Source of the DNA: Heptranchias perlo
Lineage: Eukaryota
Direction: 5' to 3'
Length of the DNA stretch: 64,000 bases
Assembly: GCF_035084215.1 (NCBI RefSeq)
Contig: NC_090347.1
Span: 25,668,001 to 25,732,000 of the forward strand
Under the pieces are notes generated by a model. It did not search any database and was not told where the DNA came from. It was given only the letters and a program-made list of their open reading frames with translations. Numbering within the stretch: position 1 is the first letter of the stretch; every line of letters begins with the position of its first letter. The translations under genes and the position numbers were made by a program. Below, piece by piece: positions 2,882 through 50,480 of this stretch.

Positions 2882-3642
2882 TGTAAGGAAATATAGTTTT
2901 CACACAAATGTATGAGGAATTCAAAGGGTTAGACTTAACGGGGTTATGGGTGAGAAACAACAGGAACCAGCCTTAGTGCAATAATACTCGTGGTTAAAAA
3001 CACACAACCATGCTACCTGAGGCAAAAACAGTGAAACAAAGGATGGGCCTGTATGTCCGAACATGTCGCTAAGCAACTACATTCCAGAATCAAGGAAGAA
3101 TGATTGATGGGCCCCTAAAAGTGCTGAAAAGGGAACCATCTATAAGTGGCTTAAGTTTGCAGCAGTAAAAAGGGGGGCTAGGGGTTAACTCAGTTTATAA
3201 GTAGCCAGCCCCTACTCAGACTCAGGGTAGAGGACAGAAAAAGAAAGTACCAGGCAGGTAAACAAGAACAAGAGTACATGAAGGAATGGGGAATGAGTTT
3301 GCAGCTTCTACCCAAAGGACACCAGGGTAACATAATTCTCAACCGTGCTTTGTAAACTACTGCTTAAATATTGTAATGTATTGATTCTTGCTTGTGCTAA
3401 ATAAAGTCATATGGCTATTAACCATTATGGTGTCAGTCTCGAACATTGAACGGAGAGTCAAAATTGACTACAAATTGGCGAGAGCCAGCCAAGAGACTGA
3501 CACAACAGCCATTGGCATATTTGGTGTAAGCGAGATCCGAGGACTGACGTGGACTGATATCACCTAGTCAGTTAAGGATGGGAACCTTCAGGGAGTGTAG
3601 GGCATTGCGACCTGCCAGAACAGAGGGTCAAAATTGACTACA
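2882..3642 (+). mobile_element. Internally deleted LTR retroelement: 5' LTR 2882-3472, PBS, short internal piece, last ~16 nt of 3' LTR
   Basis: TG..CA ends, TATAA motifs and AATAAA (~3400) inside the LTR, terminal GTCAAAATTGACTACA at both 3457-3472 and 3627-3642, 4-bp TSD GTGG (2878-2881, 3643-3646). Confidence 0.85.
3476..3495 (+). promoter_or_regulatory. Primer binding site, tRNA-Arg(ACG) type
   Basis: TGGCGAGAGCCAGCCAAGAG versus the complement of the tRNA-Arg(ACG) 3' end, TGGCGAGCCAGCCAGGAG (2-nt insertion, 1 mismatch), 3 nt after the LTR end. Confidence 0.75.
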
Positions 3643-3841
3643 GTGGTCTGCACATACATGCTTACACTGTGGTCTGCACATACATGCTTACATTGTGGTC
3701 TGCACATATATGCTTACACTGTGGTCTGCACATACATGCTTACACTGTGGTCTGCACATACATGCTTACACTGTGGTCTGCACATACATGCTTACACTGT
3801 GGTCTGCACATACATGCTTACACTGTGGTCTGCACATACAT
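3643..3841. repeat. 26-bp minisatellite, right (homogeneous) part
   Basis: About 7.5 near-perfect copies of the same 26-mer; explains the periodic ORFs 3634..3975 and 3669..3914. Confidence 0.95.
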
Positions 3842-3844
3842 CTG

Positions 3845-4008
3845 TAGATACGGAGGTAGTGCCAGACGACTGGAGAATTGCAAATGTTACTCCCTTGTTC
3901 AAAAAAGGGTGTAAGGATAAACCCAACAACTATAGGCCAGTCAGTTTAACCCCTCAGTGGTGGGGAAACTTTTAGAAAAGATAATCCAGGACAGAATTAA
4001 CAGTCTGA
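3845..4008 (+). mobile_element. CR1 LINE ORF2 fragment
   Basis: VVPDDWRIANVTPLFKKG..NYRPVSLT motif. Confidence 0.85.
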
Positions 4009-11166: not shown

Positions 11167-11731
11167 GTCGGGGAACACTTCAGCAGTCAAGGACATTCAG
11201 CCTCCGATCTTCGGGTAAGCGTTCTCCAAGGCGGCCTTCAAGACACACGACAACGCAAAATCATCGAGCAGAAATTGATAGCCAAGTTCCGCACCCATGA
11301 GGATGGCCTCAACCGGGATCTTGGGTTCATGTCACGCTACATGTAACCCCACCAGAGAAAAAAAAGTTATCTGTTTTTATTACAACTGACCATTCTCTCT
11401 CTCTCTCTGCCTTTTGGGTGTTTGTGTCTCTCTCTCTCTGTCTTTGTAATCTGACCACTTGTGTATTCAGTGGTCTTAGGTGTAATGTTCCCCTGTCTGA
11501 ACACCATCCATGCAGAGGTGTGATAACGGGCAGTTGGAAAGATTATCTGTAATCACCAGGTATTGTTCTGTGACTATATATGCGGTGCTTTTATGGAAAC
11601 CTTCACACACCTGACGAAGGAGGAAAGCTCCGAAAGCTTGTGATTTTCAAATGGAACTGTTGGACTATAACCTGGTGTTGTAAGATTCCTTACATTTGTC
11701 CACCCCAGTCCATCACCGGCATTTCCACATC
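11167..11731 (+). mobile_element. Penelope-like element, 3' part (GIY-YIG C-terminus and 3' region)
   Basis: VGEHFSSQGH..EQKLIAKFRTHEDGLNRD* continues the sequence broken at 7047. Ends in the same CCATCACCGGCAT..CCACA tail as the palindromic mini-elements. Confidence 0.9.
11607..11643 (+). ncRNA. Minimal type I hammerhead-ribozyme-like motif
   Basis: cac-CTGACGA-a-GGAG(gaaag)CTCC-GAAA-gc-TT-gtg: conserved core boxes, stem II, short stem I and palindromic AAGCTT in place of stem III. Confidence 0.65.
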
Positions 11732-13200: not shown

Positions 13201-14786
13201 AGCACACATTCAAGCTTCTCCACTGGTACTGTTTATGAGCAATCAGTGGTAGAATGGACCTCATAGTATTAGAAAGTTAAATCTCTGGGAGAGTCAATCG
13301 AATATCTTCCGAGATGTTGCCCTGTATACTTTGCAAACCAGTTGACATTGACCTTTCCTGACAGTCCCCAAGGCCTGCAGTCCTCATTCGGAGCCTGCGC
13401 ATTGAGTTGACTGACATGCTTGGATCTCTCGTGAAGCAAGGGAAGGTTTGTAGCTGCCACTTTCTCCACCTCTTCATGTACTGTTAAATGCCAGATGTTG
13501 TAGCCTGGTATTCCCTGGCATTGTGTGCTGTCTTATCCTGCAGGAAGGATGCATGGTGTTAACTGGGGTTGCTGCAGTCTCTAGGTCCTGCTGTCACAAT
13601 CAGTCAGGTTTCATGGATTTGTGGTAACAGGCAGATGTAAGGGAACAACAACTTAGGCTGTTAAAACTTCAGTGTGTTAGCATTTATCACAGGATATGAG
13701 ACACTTAACATGGTGCTACCAAGTAACATGGTGCTACCACAAGGCACCATGATAAGGAATATGGTGCCTTGTGACACCCTAAAGGGCTTTGATTGACTAT
13801 TCTTCTTGGGATTACCCAACCGCTTCTCTATAATTCAGCTATCATCAGTTATCCTGTTATTCATCTAAAAACACTCTTACTTTTGCTGAATTGGGAAGGT
13901 CAGTGACCTTCTGACACTTCAAGGGAATTATGGAGGTCCCATACACAGCCACAGCCACCTCCTTTTACCTGGAACCATCTGTCTGCATGTCATTGCTTCT
14001 TCCCTGGTATTTGAACTACTGCATCCCTCCCTTCTCTATTTTGGGCAAGCAGCACTTCCACATTGGCCTCTGAAAAGTTAAATGCTTGTCTATTTTCGTC
14101 TTTGGCACCAGTCATTTCAGTCCCTCTGTCAAGAGCCTGCGCACCTCTTTATAACTGCATGGAGTATTAAATATGGATGTTGTACCATTCCTTCCCCCCA
14201 CCCCTGCCCGTCCTGAATTTTCTGGGCTCCCCCAGTGAATCTGGTCCCCTGCTGGTGGGTAGGCCTCCTGCCATTGTCCCAAAAACATTGAGCCAGAACT
14301 CGCTCAGAGCAGCGTGGCAACGTTCGCAGCAGTTCCTGCGAATTAAATGTACAAATGTCCTCACTGCGGGCTCCATGGAGTAGACTTGTGTGATTTGTAA
14401 GTTTTCAAAAAATGCGCGACATCAACTCAGCCTCCGAACAGCGCGGGTTGATTCTCACGGGAAGTGTTTTGTGAGAATAGAAGACTCGCCCATAAAATCT
14501 GTCAGGATGAGAAGCCATGCCCACAAGCAGGCAAGCAAAGTTCATTCATTTAAAGTTATATTCTGCAAGTCATTGTAAATAAAAAATTTAATTTTTTTAA
14601 TAAAAAGCCAAAGAAGTAATTTAATTAAATTAGAGAGACGGAAGTGAAAAGTAAAAAAAAGTTTAACTTTGTTTTTAATTTTTAATAAAATTTTTAATGA
14701 CCCAAAAATATTACAATAAGGAGTAATATGAGATGCCACATTTTTAAAATTTAAATTTTAGTTGTTCGGCAATCATTAAGAGTGAT

Positions 14787-14933
14787 TAATCACTCCTAAT
14801 GATTGCCGAACAATCATTAATCACTCCTTATGATTGCCGAACAATCATTAATCACTCCTAATGATTGCCGAACAATCATTAATCACTCCTAATGATTGCC
14901 GAACAATCATTAATCACTCCTAATGATTGCCGA
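14787..14933. repeat. 31-bp tandem repeat (4.7 copies), inverted relative to the adjacent sequence
   Basis: Unit TAATCACTCCTAATGATTGCCGAACAATCAT; it is largely the reverse complement of 14762-14788. Confidence 0.95.
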
Positions 14934-16687
14934 GTGATTATTTACGCGCTTTTCAAAAGTAGTGGTATTATTCAAAGTACCTTTTGGTAGCGTAAGTAAT
15001 TACATTCCACTTGGGCAGATGGACAAGTTTACGATGTTTCAGTGATTTCAATGATTATGCGTGCAACTCCCCTTTAATTCGCAGCTGTCAAATCGTCGGC
15101 AAACCAACAGGAGCAGGTTCATGATTTCCGGGTTTTAGTGCGCATGTGCAAATGCGTGAACTTACTCCTTCAGTTCGCCAGCGGAGACAGAGGATGCCAT
15201 TGAGGAACGGCGTTGACAGGTGAGTAATTTCTGCCCCATTATTTAAATTAGCTGACCCTGGATTTCTGAGAGGATCAGCTTCCTCTGATTTCAGCGGCCA
15301 CAAGTTCCAATCTGCCTCACTTACGCCAATGAAAAAAGGACCCGTGAATTTTAAGGAAAACTTTTCTGTCCTGGCAACATGATGAACAGACAGTTGGTCC
15401 ATCACAGCATCAAGCACATTGCTAATAAAAACCAAACTTTCCTCAGTGTACTTGAATCATCTTTCAGCATGTGGCTCATAGCCTAGCAACTCACATACAC
15501 ATATTCTTTTTGAAAGTTATTCCCATGGGACTTGATTCCTGATGTGATGGAACAGGGCCAGCAGCTAAATTGGGCTTCTGCTGAATATCAGTTCACCCTT
15601 CTCGGCCTAACCGTTGCTCATTCTGGACAGATGCTTGTTTCAATTAGGCTTTGATGTAAGATGCTTTGATTCAAGGGCCCAGCTTTCTCTTGCATTGCCT
15701 TTGGCGTCTGGCAGCAAACTCTTCTTGTGAAATGCTGTCTCTTGTGAGAGTATGATCTGTGGCAGTGAAGAGGCAGCCTTTTAGTCAGAGCGGAGACCTC
15801 TTCTTCCATTCCTTATAGTCTTTCTGTTGAGAGAACAGATCAAACATTGTTAGTGTTGAGATTAGATTAGGTAAAATTCAGCAAGACAGCCAACAAATAG
15901 AAAATGGAAATATGAGTTGAAAAATTCTCAACGGGATGGAGTCTGTAACTGACTGCCTAAAGAATACACAGCGATGGAAATGAGATGCAAGTGGGTGTCA
16001 AGTGGTTCTGCACACAGATTTTTTTCAAAACTGCTGGGGACAGATCAGATCAGTGCTATTGCTTCCTGAGCTGCAGAGTAGGAGCCTTTCATCTTAAAGT
16101 GGCAGACTGGAATTGTCAAGAAAGGACTTTATCTTTGGCTTTTTGCATTAAAATCGTTTTGCTGCTTCAGTACTTGCTCCTGAATGATGCTAGTCTCCTA
16201 CAATTAGTGACTGAGGCTGTATTCAGGACAGTGCCACATCCCCTCCCCCACCTTATGCAATTGGCTGTTTGGAAGGAGAACCAACCACAAGTCCCCTTGA
16301 CAGTTACTGAAGAAGTTCCTGGTTGTCACTTGCAACCGCATCCCTGCAACAAAGCAAAAATCCTCCCTCCCACGGCCCATACAATGACTCCATCCCATCT
16401 TGAATAAAATGAGAAGCCTTAAAACACACCCAGGACCCTTCTATTGCTGCCTCCTTAATTTTCATATCTGGACTTCGATTCCCAGTTCCTCCACACTCCA
16501 ACTGTGCTGATATCACAATGATAGATTACCAACATCCTTCTTTGCTTGAATTTCTATGATTCCATGATACCAAAATCTGAAACCAAATTTGCTGCTATAT
16601 ATTATACTGTCATCTTACACACGATGCTTAGGTTTGGGCCAAACAACAGATTATAGTATCATACCAGCTACAGATGTAAGATTGAGG

Positions 16688-16826: not shown

Positions 16827-17787
16827 GTTTCCCATGACTTATGTTATCTGCATGCTATCAGGATCACTCACCAGAAATCCAACAGACAGTTGCCTTTCTT
16901 GCCTTCCCATGAGGCACTGGGCCCTGAAGCAATCAAGCATTACATTTCCTGACTTAGTCCCTAAACCACTTGGGCATTCCCAATCTGGTTAGTTGGTTAG
17001 TTGAAATCCCCCTCCCCCACAACAATAAACCTTCCTGTTTTCGTGTGTCCTCACTCGTCAAAGACTCGGCAGTTCTCCTTGTTCTAATTCGATGATTTGT
17101 GGCAAACCCCTATTTGCATTAGAAACATCCAGCCAGAGCAATTGGCAGTAGCTGAGTTTTTTTCTTTCCTGACATAAAAAGCCCGTCTCTTCTTTTCTGT
17201 TGTATTCTTTTTGAACATTCAAAGCCTTCTATTTTGTATTCACCTCCAGCATCGAGGGAAGGCACATTTTTTGTTATTCTTATTACATCACAGCTCCTTA
17301 CTGCGACAACAGATTCAAGTACAACCATTTTTAGTACAAATGCTTCTAGCCTTCATCTACATGCACCTTTTAAGATTCATTTTTTTTTTCTTGGGTTCCA
17401 CTTCAACAGAAAAGTACGTCAATTTCACAACTTCTCTGTTAACCAAATTCATGTGATAGTCATAGGTCTGTGGTGGCAGAGGCTGCTGTTGCTGACCCCA
17501 TATTTTATTTCACATATCTCAGTTTCTTCTTTTATTTGGTCTGGCATAGTCAGATTTGAACTTTGGCCTTTCGAGAAAAGTGCTTTGAAATTTGCTTCTC
17601 ATTCAATGAAGAAAGTTTCTTTTTAATTTGCCAGAAACTGCAGCTTCAATTTAACTGGACGAAATTAATCCTCCAAAAAAGATTAAAGTACATTCTTAAC
17701 ATAGGCAAAGAGCTGGTCAGCGATTTGAGGAACAAATGAAATGGCCAGTGAGCATTGACAAAGCAGAGAAAGAACTAAATGAAACTA

Positions 17788-18320
17788 TTGTAAGGGATCT
17801 TACAACACCAGGTTATAGTCCAACAGTTTTATTTGAAAATCACAAGCTTTCGGAGGCTTTCTCCTTCGTCAGGTGAGTGTGGGATTCCATGGAAGGTACC
17901 GCATATATAGTCAGAGAACAATACCTGGTGATTACAGACAATCTTTTTGGGAAAGGAGGATTGCAAATAACTGCAAATTGTCTTGGAGGACTGCGGCAGA
18001 GTACAGAGCCCCCAAGTTGTCAAAGGTTGAAATGAAAGTGCTACTGGCCCAAATAAGGCAGAGTACGAGGGCCCAGTTTGGGACTGAACAGAGAATGCCG
18101 TTAAAAGGTCACTACCCAGAAACAAATGTAAGGAATCTTACAACACCAGGTTATAGTCCAACAGTTTTATTTGAAAATCACAAGCTTTCGGAGGCTTTCT
18201 CCTTCGTCAGGAGAAAGCCTCCGAAAGCTTGTGATTTTCAAATAAAACTGTTGGACTATAACCTGGTGTTGTAAGATTCCTTACATTTGTCCACTCCAGT
18301 CCATCACCGGCATCTCCACA
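17788..18320. mobile_element. Composite Penelope-derived insertion: inverted 3' fragment, foreign ~175-bp segment, palindromic mini-element
   Basis: Flanked by 12-bp direct repeat TAAATGAAACTA (17776-17787, 18321-18332). Palindrome 18122-18290 plus tail. Hammerhead-like motif on minus strand at 17840-17876. Confidence 0.85.
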
Positions 18321-18419
18321 TAAATGAAACTAGAAATGGAAGGATATAACCTGTAGTCTGCAGGGTGCATTGGCTTTCTTGCAGCTGCTAATACAATTAA
18401 ATATACACCAGATGACACA

Positions 18420-19720
18420 TACAAACATGACAGGAAAAGATCCACTGTCCCATACAGTCGGAATACAGACATTCCTGACCCACCCAGAGCTATGTAATCA
18501 CCTGGGAGAGGGGAAATAACAGATTAAAAACCCAGGCCAATTAAAGAAAAATATCTGGAAAATTCCTCATCAACCCCTTTAGGCAATCAAAACTCGAGTG
18601 GGAGATTATATTGACTTGGATTTAAATAACAAGGTACCTGCCTCTTGTTTGAAATGATCTCTGCCCCAGTCAGAAACAGGTCCAGCTCTCTCTTGATGGA
18701 ATTCAGGAAATCAGCGTTCACCACATGAGCCAAAAACCTGTTCCACAGGTTCACTATTCCATGGGAAAAGAACCACCTAACATCCAACCTAGTTCTGTCC
18801 TTACATAACTTGTTCTCCCTAACCTATCCAGAAATAATTGGTCCACATAAACACAATCTCATCTCTTCACTATTTTATAAACCTCAGTCAAATTGCCCGA
18901 GTCTATGCTTTTCTAAAATATACAAACGCAGCTCTTTGAGCCTATCTGGGTAATTAAGGTGTTTTAAATTGATAATTAATCTTGTGGCCCTCCTCCTCCT
19001 AAGCCTCAATATCCACCACCATGTGAGACTAAAGCTGGACACAGTATTATAACTGAGGCCTAACCAAGTTCTTGTACAAAAACAAAATGGTATGCTTTGT
19101 TTTGTAATGAATTGTCCTGTGAATATAACCTAGAACTCTGTTCACAGCATTGGTCATGAACCTTTAGAGACTGATGCACGACAACACCCAGATTTTTCAC
19201 TACTGGCTTCATTCTTGTTTTCTGTAAGGCGTATGTATATTTAGCATTAGACCTGCCCATGTGCATAACGCTACACTTTTCTAAGTTAAACATAATTTGC
19301 CCATAAACATAGGCCCATTTCCCCAACACATCAAGATCTGCTTAGAGTAGTTGTGATGTGGAGATGCCGGTGATGGACTGGGGTGGACAAATGTAAGGAA
19401 TCTTACAACACCAGGTTATAGTCCAACAGTTTTATTTGAAAATCACAAGCTTTCGGAGGCTTCCTCACCTGACGAAGGAGGAAGCCTCCGAAAGCTTGTG
19501 ATTTTCAAATAAAACTGTTGGACTATAACCTGGTGTTGTAAGATTCCTTAGAGTAGTTGAACATCGTCTACAGTCCTAACACTCACATGTATCTTGGTGT
19601 CATCTGCAAACTTGCAGATTACCTTGGTCATTAGCGAATATAGTAAATAGCAAAGGTTCTAATACTGATCCCTGTGGGATACCAATGGTAACTGGTCTAC
19701 AAGCAGATTCAATAACCATC
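18420..19720 (-). mobile_element. Old decayed CR1 LINE 3' part (interrupted at 19354-19546)
   Basis: ORFs 18587..18787 (FFSHGIVNLWN) and 19060..19329 (FNLEKCSVMHMG); KFADDTK and PQGSVL motifs near 19590-19680. Confidence 0.8.
19354..19546. mobile_element. Palindromic Penelope-derived mini-element with hammerhead-like motif
   Basis: Inverted arms 19394-19466 and 19478-19550, 40-nt unpaired tail, 13-bp TSD CTTAGAGTAGTTG (19341-19353, 19547-19559). Motif tcac-CTGACGA-a-GGAG..CTCC-GAAA-gc-TT-gtga at 19465-19501. Confidence 0.9.
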
Positions 19721-29278: not shown

Positions 29279-29640
29279 GGGCATGATTTTAACTTGGAGC
29301 CAGGGACTCAGTGGGTGGGTGGATTTGCGTGGGTGGGGAACCCAAAAGTCAAGTGTGCACGTTTAAATCTGGAATCGCAACTCAATTGCAGGCAATTTTC
29401 TTTGCTGCCGGGTTTCGTGTCTCCAAACCGCGCAGCGGTCTTGCGCACCCGAATGACACAATTTAAAGCCCACTATTTAAAGGACCAGTCCAAGAATGGA
29501 TTTTGAAGAAGAAATAGAGTCCAGGAAAGCAAAGGCCGCCCCTAGATTTAATGATACCTCCCTGGATGTACTGCTGGCTGCAGTGAGAACCAGAAGGAAG
29601 GTAATTTTCCAATGGATGGCAGGAAGAAACCTGGCTCTGT
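29279..29640 (+). mobile_element. Harbinger end fragment with start of Myb/SANT-like gene
   Basis: TIR-like GGGCATGATTTTAAC, TATTTAAAGG box, then ..KAKAAPRFNDTSLDVLLAAVRTRRKVIF, homologous to ORF 41722. Confidence 0.75.
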
Positions 29641-38286: not shown

Positions 38287-38406
38287 CCGGAAGTCTGAGG
38301 GTGTCCGCAAGGTAGGTACATGTCTCTGGACCCCGGGGTAAGTGTGCAAGTTTATGAATTTTATTGTTAGGAGGAGGGTGGTGGAGGCCAAACTATGTCC
38401 AAAGTG

Positions 38407-38622
38407 TAAACAATTTTACAACACCAAGTTATAGTCCAGCAATTTTATTTTAAATTCACAAGCTTTCGGAGGCTTCCCCCTTCCTCAGGTTCACATCGTT
38501 CACCTGAGGAAGGGGGAAGCCTCCGAAAGCTTGTGAATTTAAAATAAAATTGCTGGACTATAACTTGGTGTTGTAAAATTGTTTACAATTGTCAACCCCA
38601 GTCCATCACCGGCATCTCCACA
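38407..38622. mobile_element. Palindromic Penelope-derived mini-element with hammerhead-like motifs on both strands
   Basis: 13-bp TSD TATGTCCAAAGTG (38394-38406, 38623-38635); empty site visible in the sister Harbinger at ~43088-43100. Motif ttcac-CTGAGGA-a-GGGG..CTCC-GAAA-gc-TT-gtgaa at 38499-38537, with an inverted copy at 38455-38490. Confidence 0.92.
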
Positions 38623-39113
38623 TATGTCCAAAGTGACAGAGTGGCCTCCTGCAATGAGTGAGGGTCTCCCCACCTCCAACCTATCAAATGGACCTTTGCA
38701 GCTGCCACAGACTGATGGCTGCAACACGTCCATTTGAACTGGGAGTGTTTCCCCCAGTATGGGAAACAGTCTCAGTTCATTTCAAAATTCTACCCCTCCG
38801 AAATTATCAGGTCAATCAGGTCTGTAAACGACATGAAGTACCTGTTTAAGTACTTTAAGTGGCACCCCGCTGGCTTTAATTGCCGGCGGGAGTCCCACAT
38901 GCGGGGGCTGCGCGCGCACGTCAGCGCGTCTGTGGGGAACCCGGAAGTGGGCGGGTTGGAGCTGGGCTCCCGACCCGCCCCGGGAATCCCGGATTTTCGC
39001 AACCCCCTCCGGCCACGAACGCACCCAATCGTGGGTGTGAAAATCGAGCCCCAGATGTATTTAACCTTATATAATGGAGGAAAAAATTAGAAACTGACTA
39101 ATCAGTCATTATG

Positions 39114-49150: not shown

Positions 49151-50480
49151 TTACAATGGGTGTACGTGTGGTTTAGGACTGTTTTGTGCAAACGGAGGGG
49201 GAGGCGTGGGGGCTGGTGTTGGTGGTGGTGGACGTTCCAGTGGTCTTAATAGCTCACTATCTTCACTTTGCGGATCTCCTTTTGAGAATCTATCAAATAT
49301 GAGTGACTTCCTGGCATCACGAGCAACCAGGTGTGTTGCTGCTCTGCCGATGGGTTGCCCATTGTCCTCCTGCTCGTCCTCCTCCTCCTTTACTTCAATC
49401 CTGATGGCAGATGTGGGTGCTTTATGAGCGCAAGTGAGCTCCTCTACCTGTAACACTGTAATGTTGTGCAGGACGCAACACACGACTATTATTCTGCACA
49501 CCCTCGCCGGTGAGTACTGAAGGGAGCCTCCAGTTCGATCCAGACACCTGAAACGCATCTTCAGGATTCCAATGGCTTGTTCAATGACAGACCTGGTGGT
49601 GATGTGACTGTCATTGTACTGCTGCTGTGCCTCATTGATGGGGTTTCTCATAGGTGTCATGAGCCATGTCTGCAGGGGGTATCCCCTGTCTCCAAGGAGC
49701 CAGCCCTTAAGTCTGTCTTGTGCGTGGAAGAGGGCTGGGATGTTGGACTTGCGCAAAGTGAAGGAATCATGGCAGCTGCTAGGGAATTTGGCACACATCT
49801 GCAGAAACCACCTCCGGTGGTCACAATCCAGCTGCGCATTGATGAAGTGATATCCTTTTTGGTTGATGAACATGTATCATGTGGAGGTGCTCGGATAGCT
49901 ACGCATGTGCAATCAATTTCGCCCTGCACCTGTGGGAAGTCAGCCAGAGAGTGGGACCCCACTGCTCTCAGTCTGGCTGATGTCATTGCAGGGGATGTTG
50001 ACATAGTCAACAAGCCAACCCTGGCAAACAAGCCAACCGTGACCTGTCAAATAAACTTATGTGCAGACGACTGAGAGATCCTGGTGATGTCACCTGTGGC
50101 ATTCCAGAAGGATCCAGAGGTGAAAAAATTGAGGTTAGTGGTGACCTTATCTGTGATGGGCAATGCGTGGCCACCAGGCCCAGCTGGGAGCAGCTCTGCA
50201 TGAAGAAGCGTGCAGATGTCTACAACCACCTGGCGACTCAATCTGAGTCTTCACAGGCACTGCTCCTCAGAGAGGTCCAGGAAGCTCAGCCTCTGTCTGT
50301 AGACCCTCTCACGTGGGTAGTGCCTCCTGCGAAGTCGGCCCCTCCGTTGGTCCCCTCTCTGTTCTTCTGCAGGTCCTTGTGGCGCACCTCTATCTTGTGG
50401 ATTTGCAACTTCCAGAACTGCACGCCTTGCTTGCAGGATGTACTGTAGAATAAATCCATTGCGCCCCCCTATCCTGATGG
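49151..50480 (-). pseudogene. HARBI1-like DDE transposase
   Basis: IDCTCVAI, NQKGYH.IN.Q, FPSSCHDS, WLLGDRGYP, WLMTP, TRSVIEQAIGILKMRFRCLD, CCVLHN; frameshifted. Confidence 0.92.

Follow-up and report, generated by a model that had tools for sequence, protein, structure and literature searches.

Capture of host DNA between Penelope repeats within one target site duplication (TSD) is a known phenomenon, published for rotifers, and element-driven shuffling of host DNA is already in print (PMC3846280). In Adineta vaga, two direct pLTRs enclose a 4-kb intron-bearing NRPS gene, with a TSD of 8 bp and an empty allele that was verified; solo pLTRs with TSDs were also seen to flank captured non-coding sequences (Arkhipova et al., 2013; PMC3846280); the pLTR capture in this species is reviewed in PMC6431247. 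For the Poseidon/Penelope element PAc of Anolis carolinensis, the purified protein is reported to cut both strands of the target in vitro and to extend them, with reverse transcription beginning at two sites on the RNA, one on either side of a tail of 30-40 nt (Frangieh et al., 2024; PMC11167929). PMC8557442 describes truncated, inverted copies of Penelope-like elements (PLEs) and tails confined to one side. Our literature search, in which few subscription papers and no supplements were covered, listed no paper on such capture in vertebrates or by palindromic mini-elements, and none on flank transduction by Penelope mini-elements of vertebrates.

Here we describe a composite insertion at positions 17776-18332 of a 64,000-nt stretch of genomic DNA (the window). 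Like the capture by EN+ Penelope elements in A. vaga, it holds foreign DNA between pLTRs in one TSD, consists otherwise of pLTR sequence only and would have been mobilised in trans; unlike the rotifer case, it carries 175 bp of non-genic DNA, two inverted arms, a 12-bp TSD and a putative donor (PMC3846280). With PAc it appears to share two start sites flanking the tail, cutting and extension of both strands, AT-rich targets and a pLTR hammerhead, whereas the PAc work was carried out in vitro with one RNA and, in the sections of that article available to us, describes neither flank transduction nor two-template insertion; PAc also primes without homology, while here the target and several junctions have 1-7 nt in common (PMC11167929). 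The general PLE architecture is seen in the inverted arms, the tail at one end and the minimal hammerhead of type I, which has one extra base between positions 9 and 10.1, but here there is no ORF and the unit is ~0.2 kb of terminal sequence (Craig et al.).

Structure and Penelope-like identity of the insertion

The original prediction placed an inverted Penelope piece, a foreign segment of ~175 bp and a palindromic mini-element within one 12-bp TSD, and the coordinates and the exact repeat bear this out. The 12-mer TAAATGAAACTA occurs on the plus strand at 17776-17787 and 18321-18332, with no third site in the window on either strand; the first T of the right copy is common with the end of the tail. 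Across the whole window, four exact 12-mer matches (two distinct repeats) occur at 500-600 bp spacing among ~6.4 million position pairs, the TAAATGAAACTA pair being one of them. With only two distinct repeats in so many pairs, matching 12-mers exactly at both element ends are not a product of chance. We found no separate TSD flanking the mini-element or the left arm by itself; the longest common word is 5 nt.

The left arm (arm A; 17788-17946, minus strand) is an inverted, tail-less Penelope-like terminal piece of 159 nt, whose outer end is the tail-less start site and whose sense end is CCTTACA, as in other tail-less arms. Over 158 nt (17789-17946), it is 89.9% identical to the reverse of 11538-11694. 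Its boundary with the cargo stands at the predicted coordinates with one correction: TTT at 17944-17946 (plus strand) is common to arm A, for which the family match runs through 17946, and to a second context of the cargo, a 3015-nt contig that matches from 17944. Past this TTT, the family sequence continues with other letters. The cargo itself (17947-18121, plus strand; 175 bp) is probably the 5' flank of a donor mini-element and is identical on the 3015-nt contig. Nothing else in the window corresponds to it (best blastn E 0.39), which rules out local templating from within the window.

The palindromic mini-element begins with arm B (18122-18211, minus strand), an inverted tail-less arm in which the hammerhead core is present with 3/4 helix I pairs and which starts ~5 nt past the usual tail-less end. 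Arm B is joined at AGG (18209-18211) to the sense arm C (18209-18321, plus strand), which ends in a 36-nt tail at 18286-18321. The two arms are 100% complementary over 82 nt each (18122-18203 and 18209-18290), and arms A and B are alike at 86/88 positions. Judging from these 86/88 positions and the 12/12 match of the TSD, the insertion looks young. Together, these observations support one TSD-bracketed composite insertion with foreign DNA.

The repeat is Penelope-like by its non-coding sequence marks, namely a hammerhead, a one-sided tail, inverted arms and a TSD. A minimal-hammerhead descriptor matched the window at six places with an intact helix II, every one of them inside these repeats, and three of the six, including that in arm A, have the full 4-bp helix I; 50 shuffled windows yielded 0 full matches. 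The arm A motif (17840-17876, minus strand) comprises the core, a 4-bp helix II, a 4-bp helix I and a palindromic helix III. These features agree with the hammerheads described in PMC4209133. An Rfam search of the window gave no hammerhead, and its 26 matches below the gathering score are hairpin look-alikes of miRNA models. Inverted arms with a TSD, a PLE feature, are present in the composite (TSD 12 bp) and in the copies at 19341-19559 and 38394-38635 (13 bp each), and in each of these three TSD-bracketed copies a 36-nt tail is found on one arm and none on the other. The ends of the four tail-less arms fall in a stretch of about 7 nt around CCTTACA, and the four tailed arms all stop at CTCCACAT(C); these positions match the two reverse transcription start sites on either side of the tail in the PAc study (PMC11167929). 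A PLE reverse transcriptase and GIY-YIG endonuclease ORF was not recognised when the 60 window ORFs of at least 120 aa were read by eye; the pieces consist of terminal sequence alone.

The family is very abundant, with a summed contig depth of ~1e5 times that of the flanks and four sites in 64 kb, and cargo is found in one of the three TSD-bracketed window copies, which are too few for a rate. The cargo-less palindromic mini-elements at 19341-19559 and 38394-38635 share 4 and ~2 nt, respectively, with the target at their tail-less ends and have arm-to-arm joins at or near the hammerhead; the latter copy belongs to a different subfamily. A single sense Penelope-like piece with a tail lies at 11522-11731, for which no inverted partner or TSD was found.

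The window holds animal DNA rich in repeats, among them remnants of LINE and Harbinger type, and these repeats resemble cartilaginous fish repeats. Exons of a B7/butyrophilin-type immunoglobulin-domain gene lie on the minus strand at 888-1253 and ~1970-2040 (C2-set_3, E 5.8e-05, below the cut-off), and this gene may contain the insertion or lie close to it. At 2624-2946, 3571-3893 and 14747-14942 there are tandem arrays whose units measure 26 nt and 31 nt, the 31-nt unit being partly palindromic. The left flank has a short open frame (17700-17787) that extends up to the TSD, has no Pfam match and is probably due to chance.

A second context of the cargo in sequencing runs

Nine sequencing runs share words with 17000-19200, four of them at 0.90 or more, all from one sample. 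We compared four of the nine over 17300-18900: X1 and X3, which are DNA of the window's organism; X7, from organism B; and X9, guessed to be RNA. X1 and X3 are not independent, since they represent one sample that is probably the window's own source. Contigs from these two runs cover the left flank, TSD and beginning of arm A (17300-17818) and the end of the tail, right TSD copy and right flank (18299-18684) with 0 differences, at depths of 19.5 and 18.3 in X1 and 12.1 and 13.8 in X3.

In both DNA runs, letters 1-202 of the 3015-nt contig equal 17944-18145 with 0 differences, covering the TTT, the cargo and the first 24 nt of arm B; for the other ~2.8 kb of the contig, no listed piece falls on 17300-18900. 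As the contig ends 24 nt inside arm B, the cargo and a Penelope start are adjacent on it, and the check that a Penelope end lies beside the donor is positive at the contig level. The cargo and mini-element are thus most likely together in the second context and joined here to the left arm via TTT microhomology. Contigs are paths in an assembly graph, not molecules, and may join two loci via the common 202 nt.

The depth of the 3015-nt contig is 7.71 in X1 and 6.04 in X3, where the flanks average 18.6 and 13.3 (ratios of 0.41 and 0.45), although contig depth is not a copy number and other contigs range from 4.4 to 14.7 in X1. Expected depths in X1/X3 are 19.7/14.0 for a two-copy donor, 10.4/7.4 for a one-copy donor and 9.8/7.0 for the other haplotype of this site. 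The observed ratios imply that the donor is single-copy in this individual or that depth is uneven, and the contig could also come from a longer cargo on the other haplotype. Given the uneven depths, a single-copy donor is likely, not certain.

Among the pieces listed for X1 and X3, no contig spans the junction of arm A and cargo, and among the joints listed for this one sample there is no empty-site joint or empty allele. X7 has no coverage of the unique flank and no depth on the cargo, and X9, one of four guessed RNA runs, has no depth on the cargo. An X9 contig of depth 552 placed at 17946/18245 runs from an antisense arm through 23 other letters into a sense arm, and is apparently another composite mini-element. 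The T at 18295 is a rare tail variant, ~99% of the depth reading C there. The extra depth on the cargo fits one further contig at 18008-18061/2, with depths of 18.0 and 13.5; this fit is non-unique (4 and 6 solutions, one shared), and the fitted contig (~18008-18062) would comprise just the Myb-like codons described below at flank-like depth. Metagenome scans with a cargo 21-mer and a Penelope 27-mer gave 0 and 0 matches.

Myb/SANT likeness of the cargo

Capture of a Myb/SANT-like coding fragment was the main point of the original prediction, and this was not borne out: the cargo has no in-frame ATG and no relative in Pfam, PDB or sequence databases. The peptide does read in the plus frame as predicted, and its 24 codons at 18005-18076 weakly resemble residues 1-24 of four window Myb-like starts, of the kind found in the PIF/Harbinger Myb/SANT-like protein (PF13873). 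This part of the claim stands in weakened form, as the likeness is at the protein level only, with no DNA likeness, and covers only the first third of the domain. A complete three-helix domain in an open gene is absent, with ~45 codons followed by Penelope sequence and no ATG before the motif within the cargo.

An ungapped profile built from three window Myb-like starts placed the cargo codons 5th of 45,393 six-frame windows; the four higher ranks went to its three training peptides and to another true copy. When the cargo was shuffled 300 times, one shuffle reached a score this high. The top 15 listed by an HMM built on these three peptides do not include the cargo codons. With tblastn, two Myb-like starts were among the three best non-self matches of the cargo (E 0.29 and 0.55). 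Pfam returned 0 families, PF13873 (Myb_DNA-bind_5) included, for three versions of the cargo peptide, and four of five scans of window Myb-like peptides were also blank, the fifth being below the cut-off (E 0.042), which makes Pfam a weak test here. A PDB search with the cargo peptide gave 0 matches; one protein-database search gave three candidates, none scoring, another gave none, and an atlas returned nothing usable. The single phmmer match among 1.84 billion representatives (P0001) is a low-complexity tandem-repeat translation and was rejected as chance. As a protein search with a window Myb-like peptide also returned nothing, the blank searches with the cargo peptide say little.

Elsewhere in the window, Myb-like starts from decayed Harbinger-type elements lie on the plus strand at 29514, 35765, 41722 and 47138, and a Harbinger-type DDE_Tnp_4 transposase piece lies on the minus strand at 49151-49876 (E 4.3e-30). 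A further decayed Myb-like start (14017-14148, minus strand; profile rank 7) is also the best weak DNA match to the cargo. The Myb-like segment is probably a decayed remnant of another family that happened to flank the donor and travelled as a passenger, and the Myb likeness is incidental to the insertion. Since the cargo makes no evident gene, the locus is probably without function.

Formation of the insertion and its implications

Our best reading, to which we assign a probability of roughly 0.55, is that reverse transcription from the right target end followed a read-through RNA of a donor mini-element into the 5' flank of that mini-element, and that the left end was primed on a second Penelope RNA. 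The insertion would be non-autonomous, made in trans by the RT-endonuclease of the Penelope family, which may have cut the target with a 12-nt stagger and primed reverse transcription from both ends. A donor locus in which the 175-bp segment precedes the palindromic mini-element would have given the read-through RNA; copying from the right end would then have started at the tail site and proceeded through arm C and arm B into 175 nt of donor 5' flank (5' transduction). At the left end, synthesis may have begun on another and longer Penelope RNA, at its tail-less site, and 159 nt including the hammerhead were then copied; a longer RNA is invoked here because, upstream of the hammerhead, arm A extends into family sequence missing from the inner mini-element. 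The cDNAs from the two ends would have been joined at TTT, arms B and C having met earlier at AGG. We infer an RNA intermediate and take the 3015-nt contig to represent a separate, complete donor locus that includes arm C and the tail. The orientation fits transduction, with the tailed arm as the 3' end of a plus-sense RNA and the cargo as its 5' flank, and both other TSD-bracketed copies in the window have the same layout of one tail-less and one tailed end.

In L1 twin priming, two-ended priming produces an inversion joined by microhomology, and in 5' transduction by L1 and SVA an upstream flank is carried over from a read-through transcript. On our reading, the composite would be like these in its two-ended priming, its microhomology-joined inversion and its upstream flank carried along, and unlike them in having no poly(A), internal priming at two fixed sites and two ends that seem to use different RNAs.

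The half-depth of the 3015-nt contig in X1 and X3, near the expected 9.8 and 7.0, would also suit an insertion whose other haplotype retains a cargo of at least 3 kb, most of which was lost from the window's haplotype by deletion at TTT. The full depth of both insertion ends and the lack of an empty allele among the joints listed agree with this, and microhomology-mediated deletions in Penelope copies are described in PMC3846280. Even so, we regard it as unlikely, as it requires a 3-kb cargo with no near-identical source in the genome despite the young-looking insertion, and its expected depth differs little from that of a single-copy donor; the first event would in any case still be Penelope-mediated capture, of a larger piece. 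Palindromes are fragile, and a palindrome of TSD, arm A and arm C could have formed first, with a central break then repaired at the DNA level from the donor via arm C, so that arm B and the 175 bp were copied and rejoined at TTT. Such repair predicts the same structure and the same donor contig, and simple antisense-sense joins are the usual form: of the 15 joints listed (with 197 further ones), 11 run from arm A to arm C positions, and two of the three TSD-bracketed window copies have a simple join. It is improbable in our estimation, given that it takes two events and that no cargo-less allele appears among those listed.

The original prediction allowed for one event by either template jumps or transduction, and of these transduction fits and jumps onto a separate Myb RNA fit less well. 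Jumps from Penelope RNA to an unrelated Myb-like RNA and back, with a cargo source that has no adjacent Penelope and a contig path that mixes two loci, could account for the start of arm B ~5 nt past the usual tail-less end as jump microhomology. Contig building may prune short graph branches into repeats or short paths beside very deep repeats. Yet the contig ends inside arm B in both DNA runs, no alternative continuation at 18121-18128 appears among the loose ends and pieces listed, and the cargo and mini-element start already stand together behind other upstream DNA; we therefore prefer transduction and give such jumps little credence. The same pruning would be expected to remove a short path at the junction of arm A and cargo, the sole join without a listed contig across it, at which an assembly or read chimera might have altered what is truly a simple mini-element. 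With only 3 nt common at this junction, which is too little for an overlap error, and with the remaining three junctions covered by contigs at 0 differences, a chimera is very unlikely. So abundant a family could also have placed two independent insertions on either side of native DNA, the repeated 12-mer then being coincidental; the rarity of such repeats (two distinct ones in ~6.4 million pairs), the lack of a TSD around either piece and the presence of the cargo in another context make this highly improbable.

Under the preferred reading of read-through transduction with two-ended priming, a composite with ends from different templates and a traceable cargo source would serve as a natural test case, predicting two-RNA priming and flank carry-over by mini-elements. 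The completion of PLE insertion and the formation of inverted repeats are described as unresolved in PMC11167929 and PMC8557442. We tentatively raise the broader, and at present doubtful, possibility that the palindromic mini-elements of 0.2 kb, very numerous in this genome, are competent donors, such that any transcript running through one in the direction of its tailed arm could be inserted in trans with its upstream flank, each Penelope insertion arising from two reverse transcription-primed target ends that use the two start sites on separate RNAs. If true, this would amount to 5' transduction on a genome-wide scale in a vertebrate, and would show in nature how PLE inverted structures form. 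Much host DNA would be moved by a family of this abundance even if flanks were carried over at a low rate.
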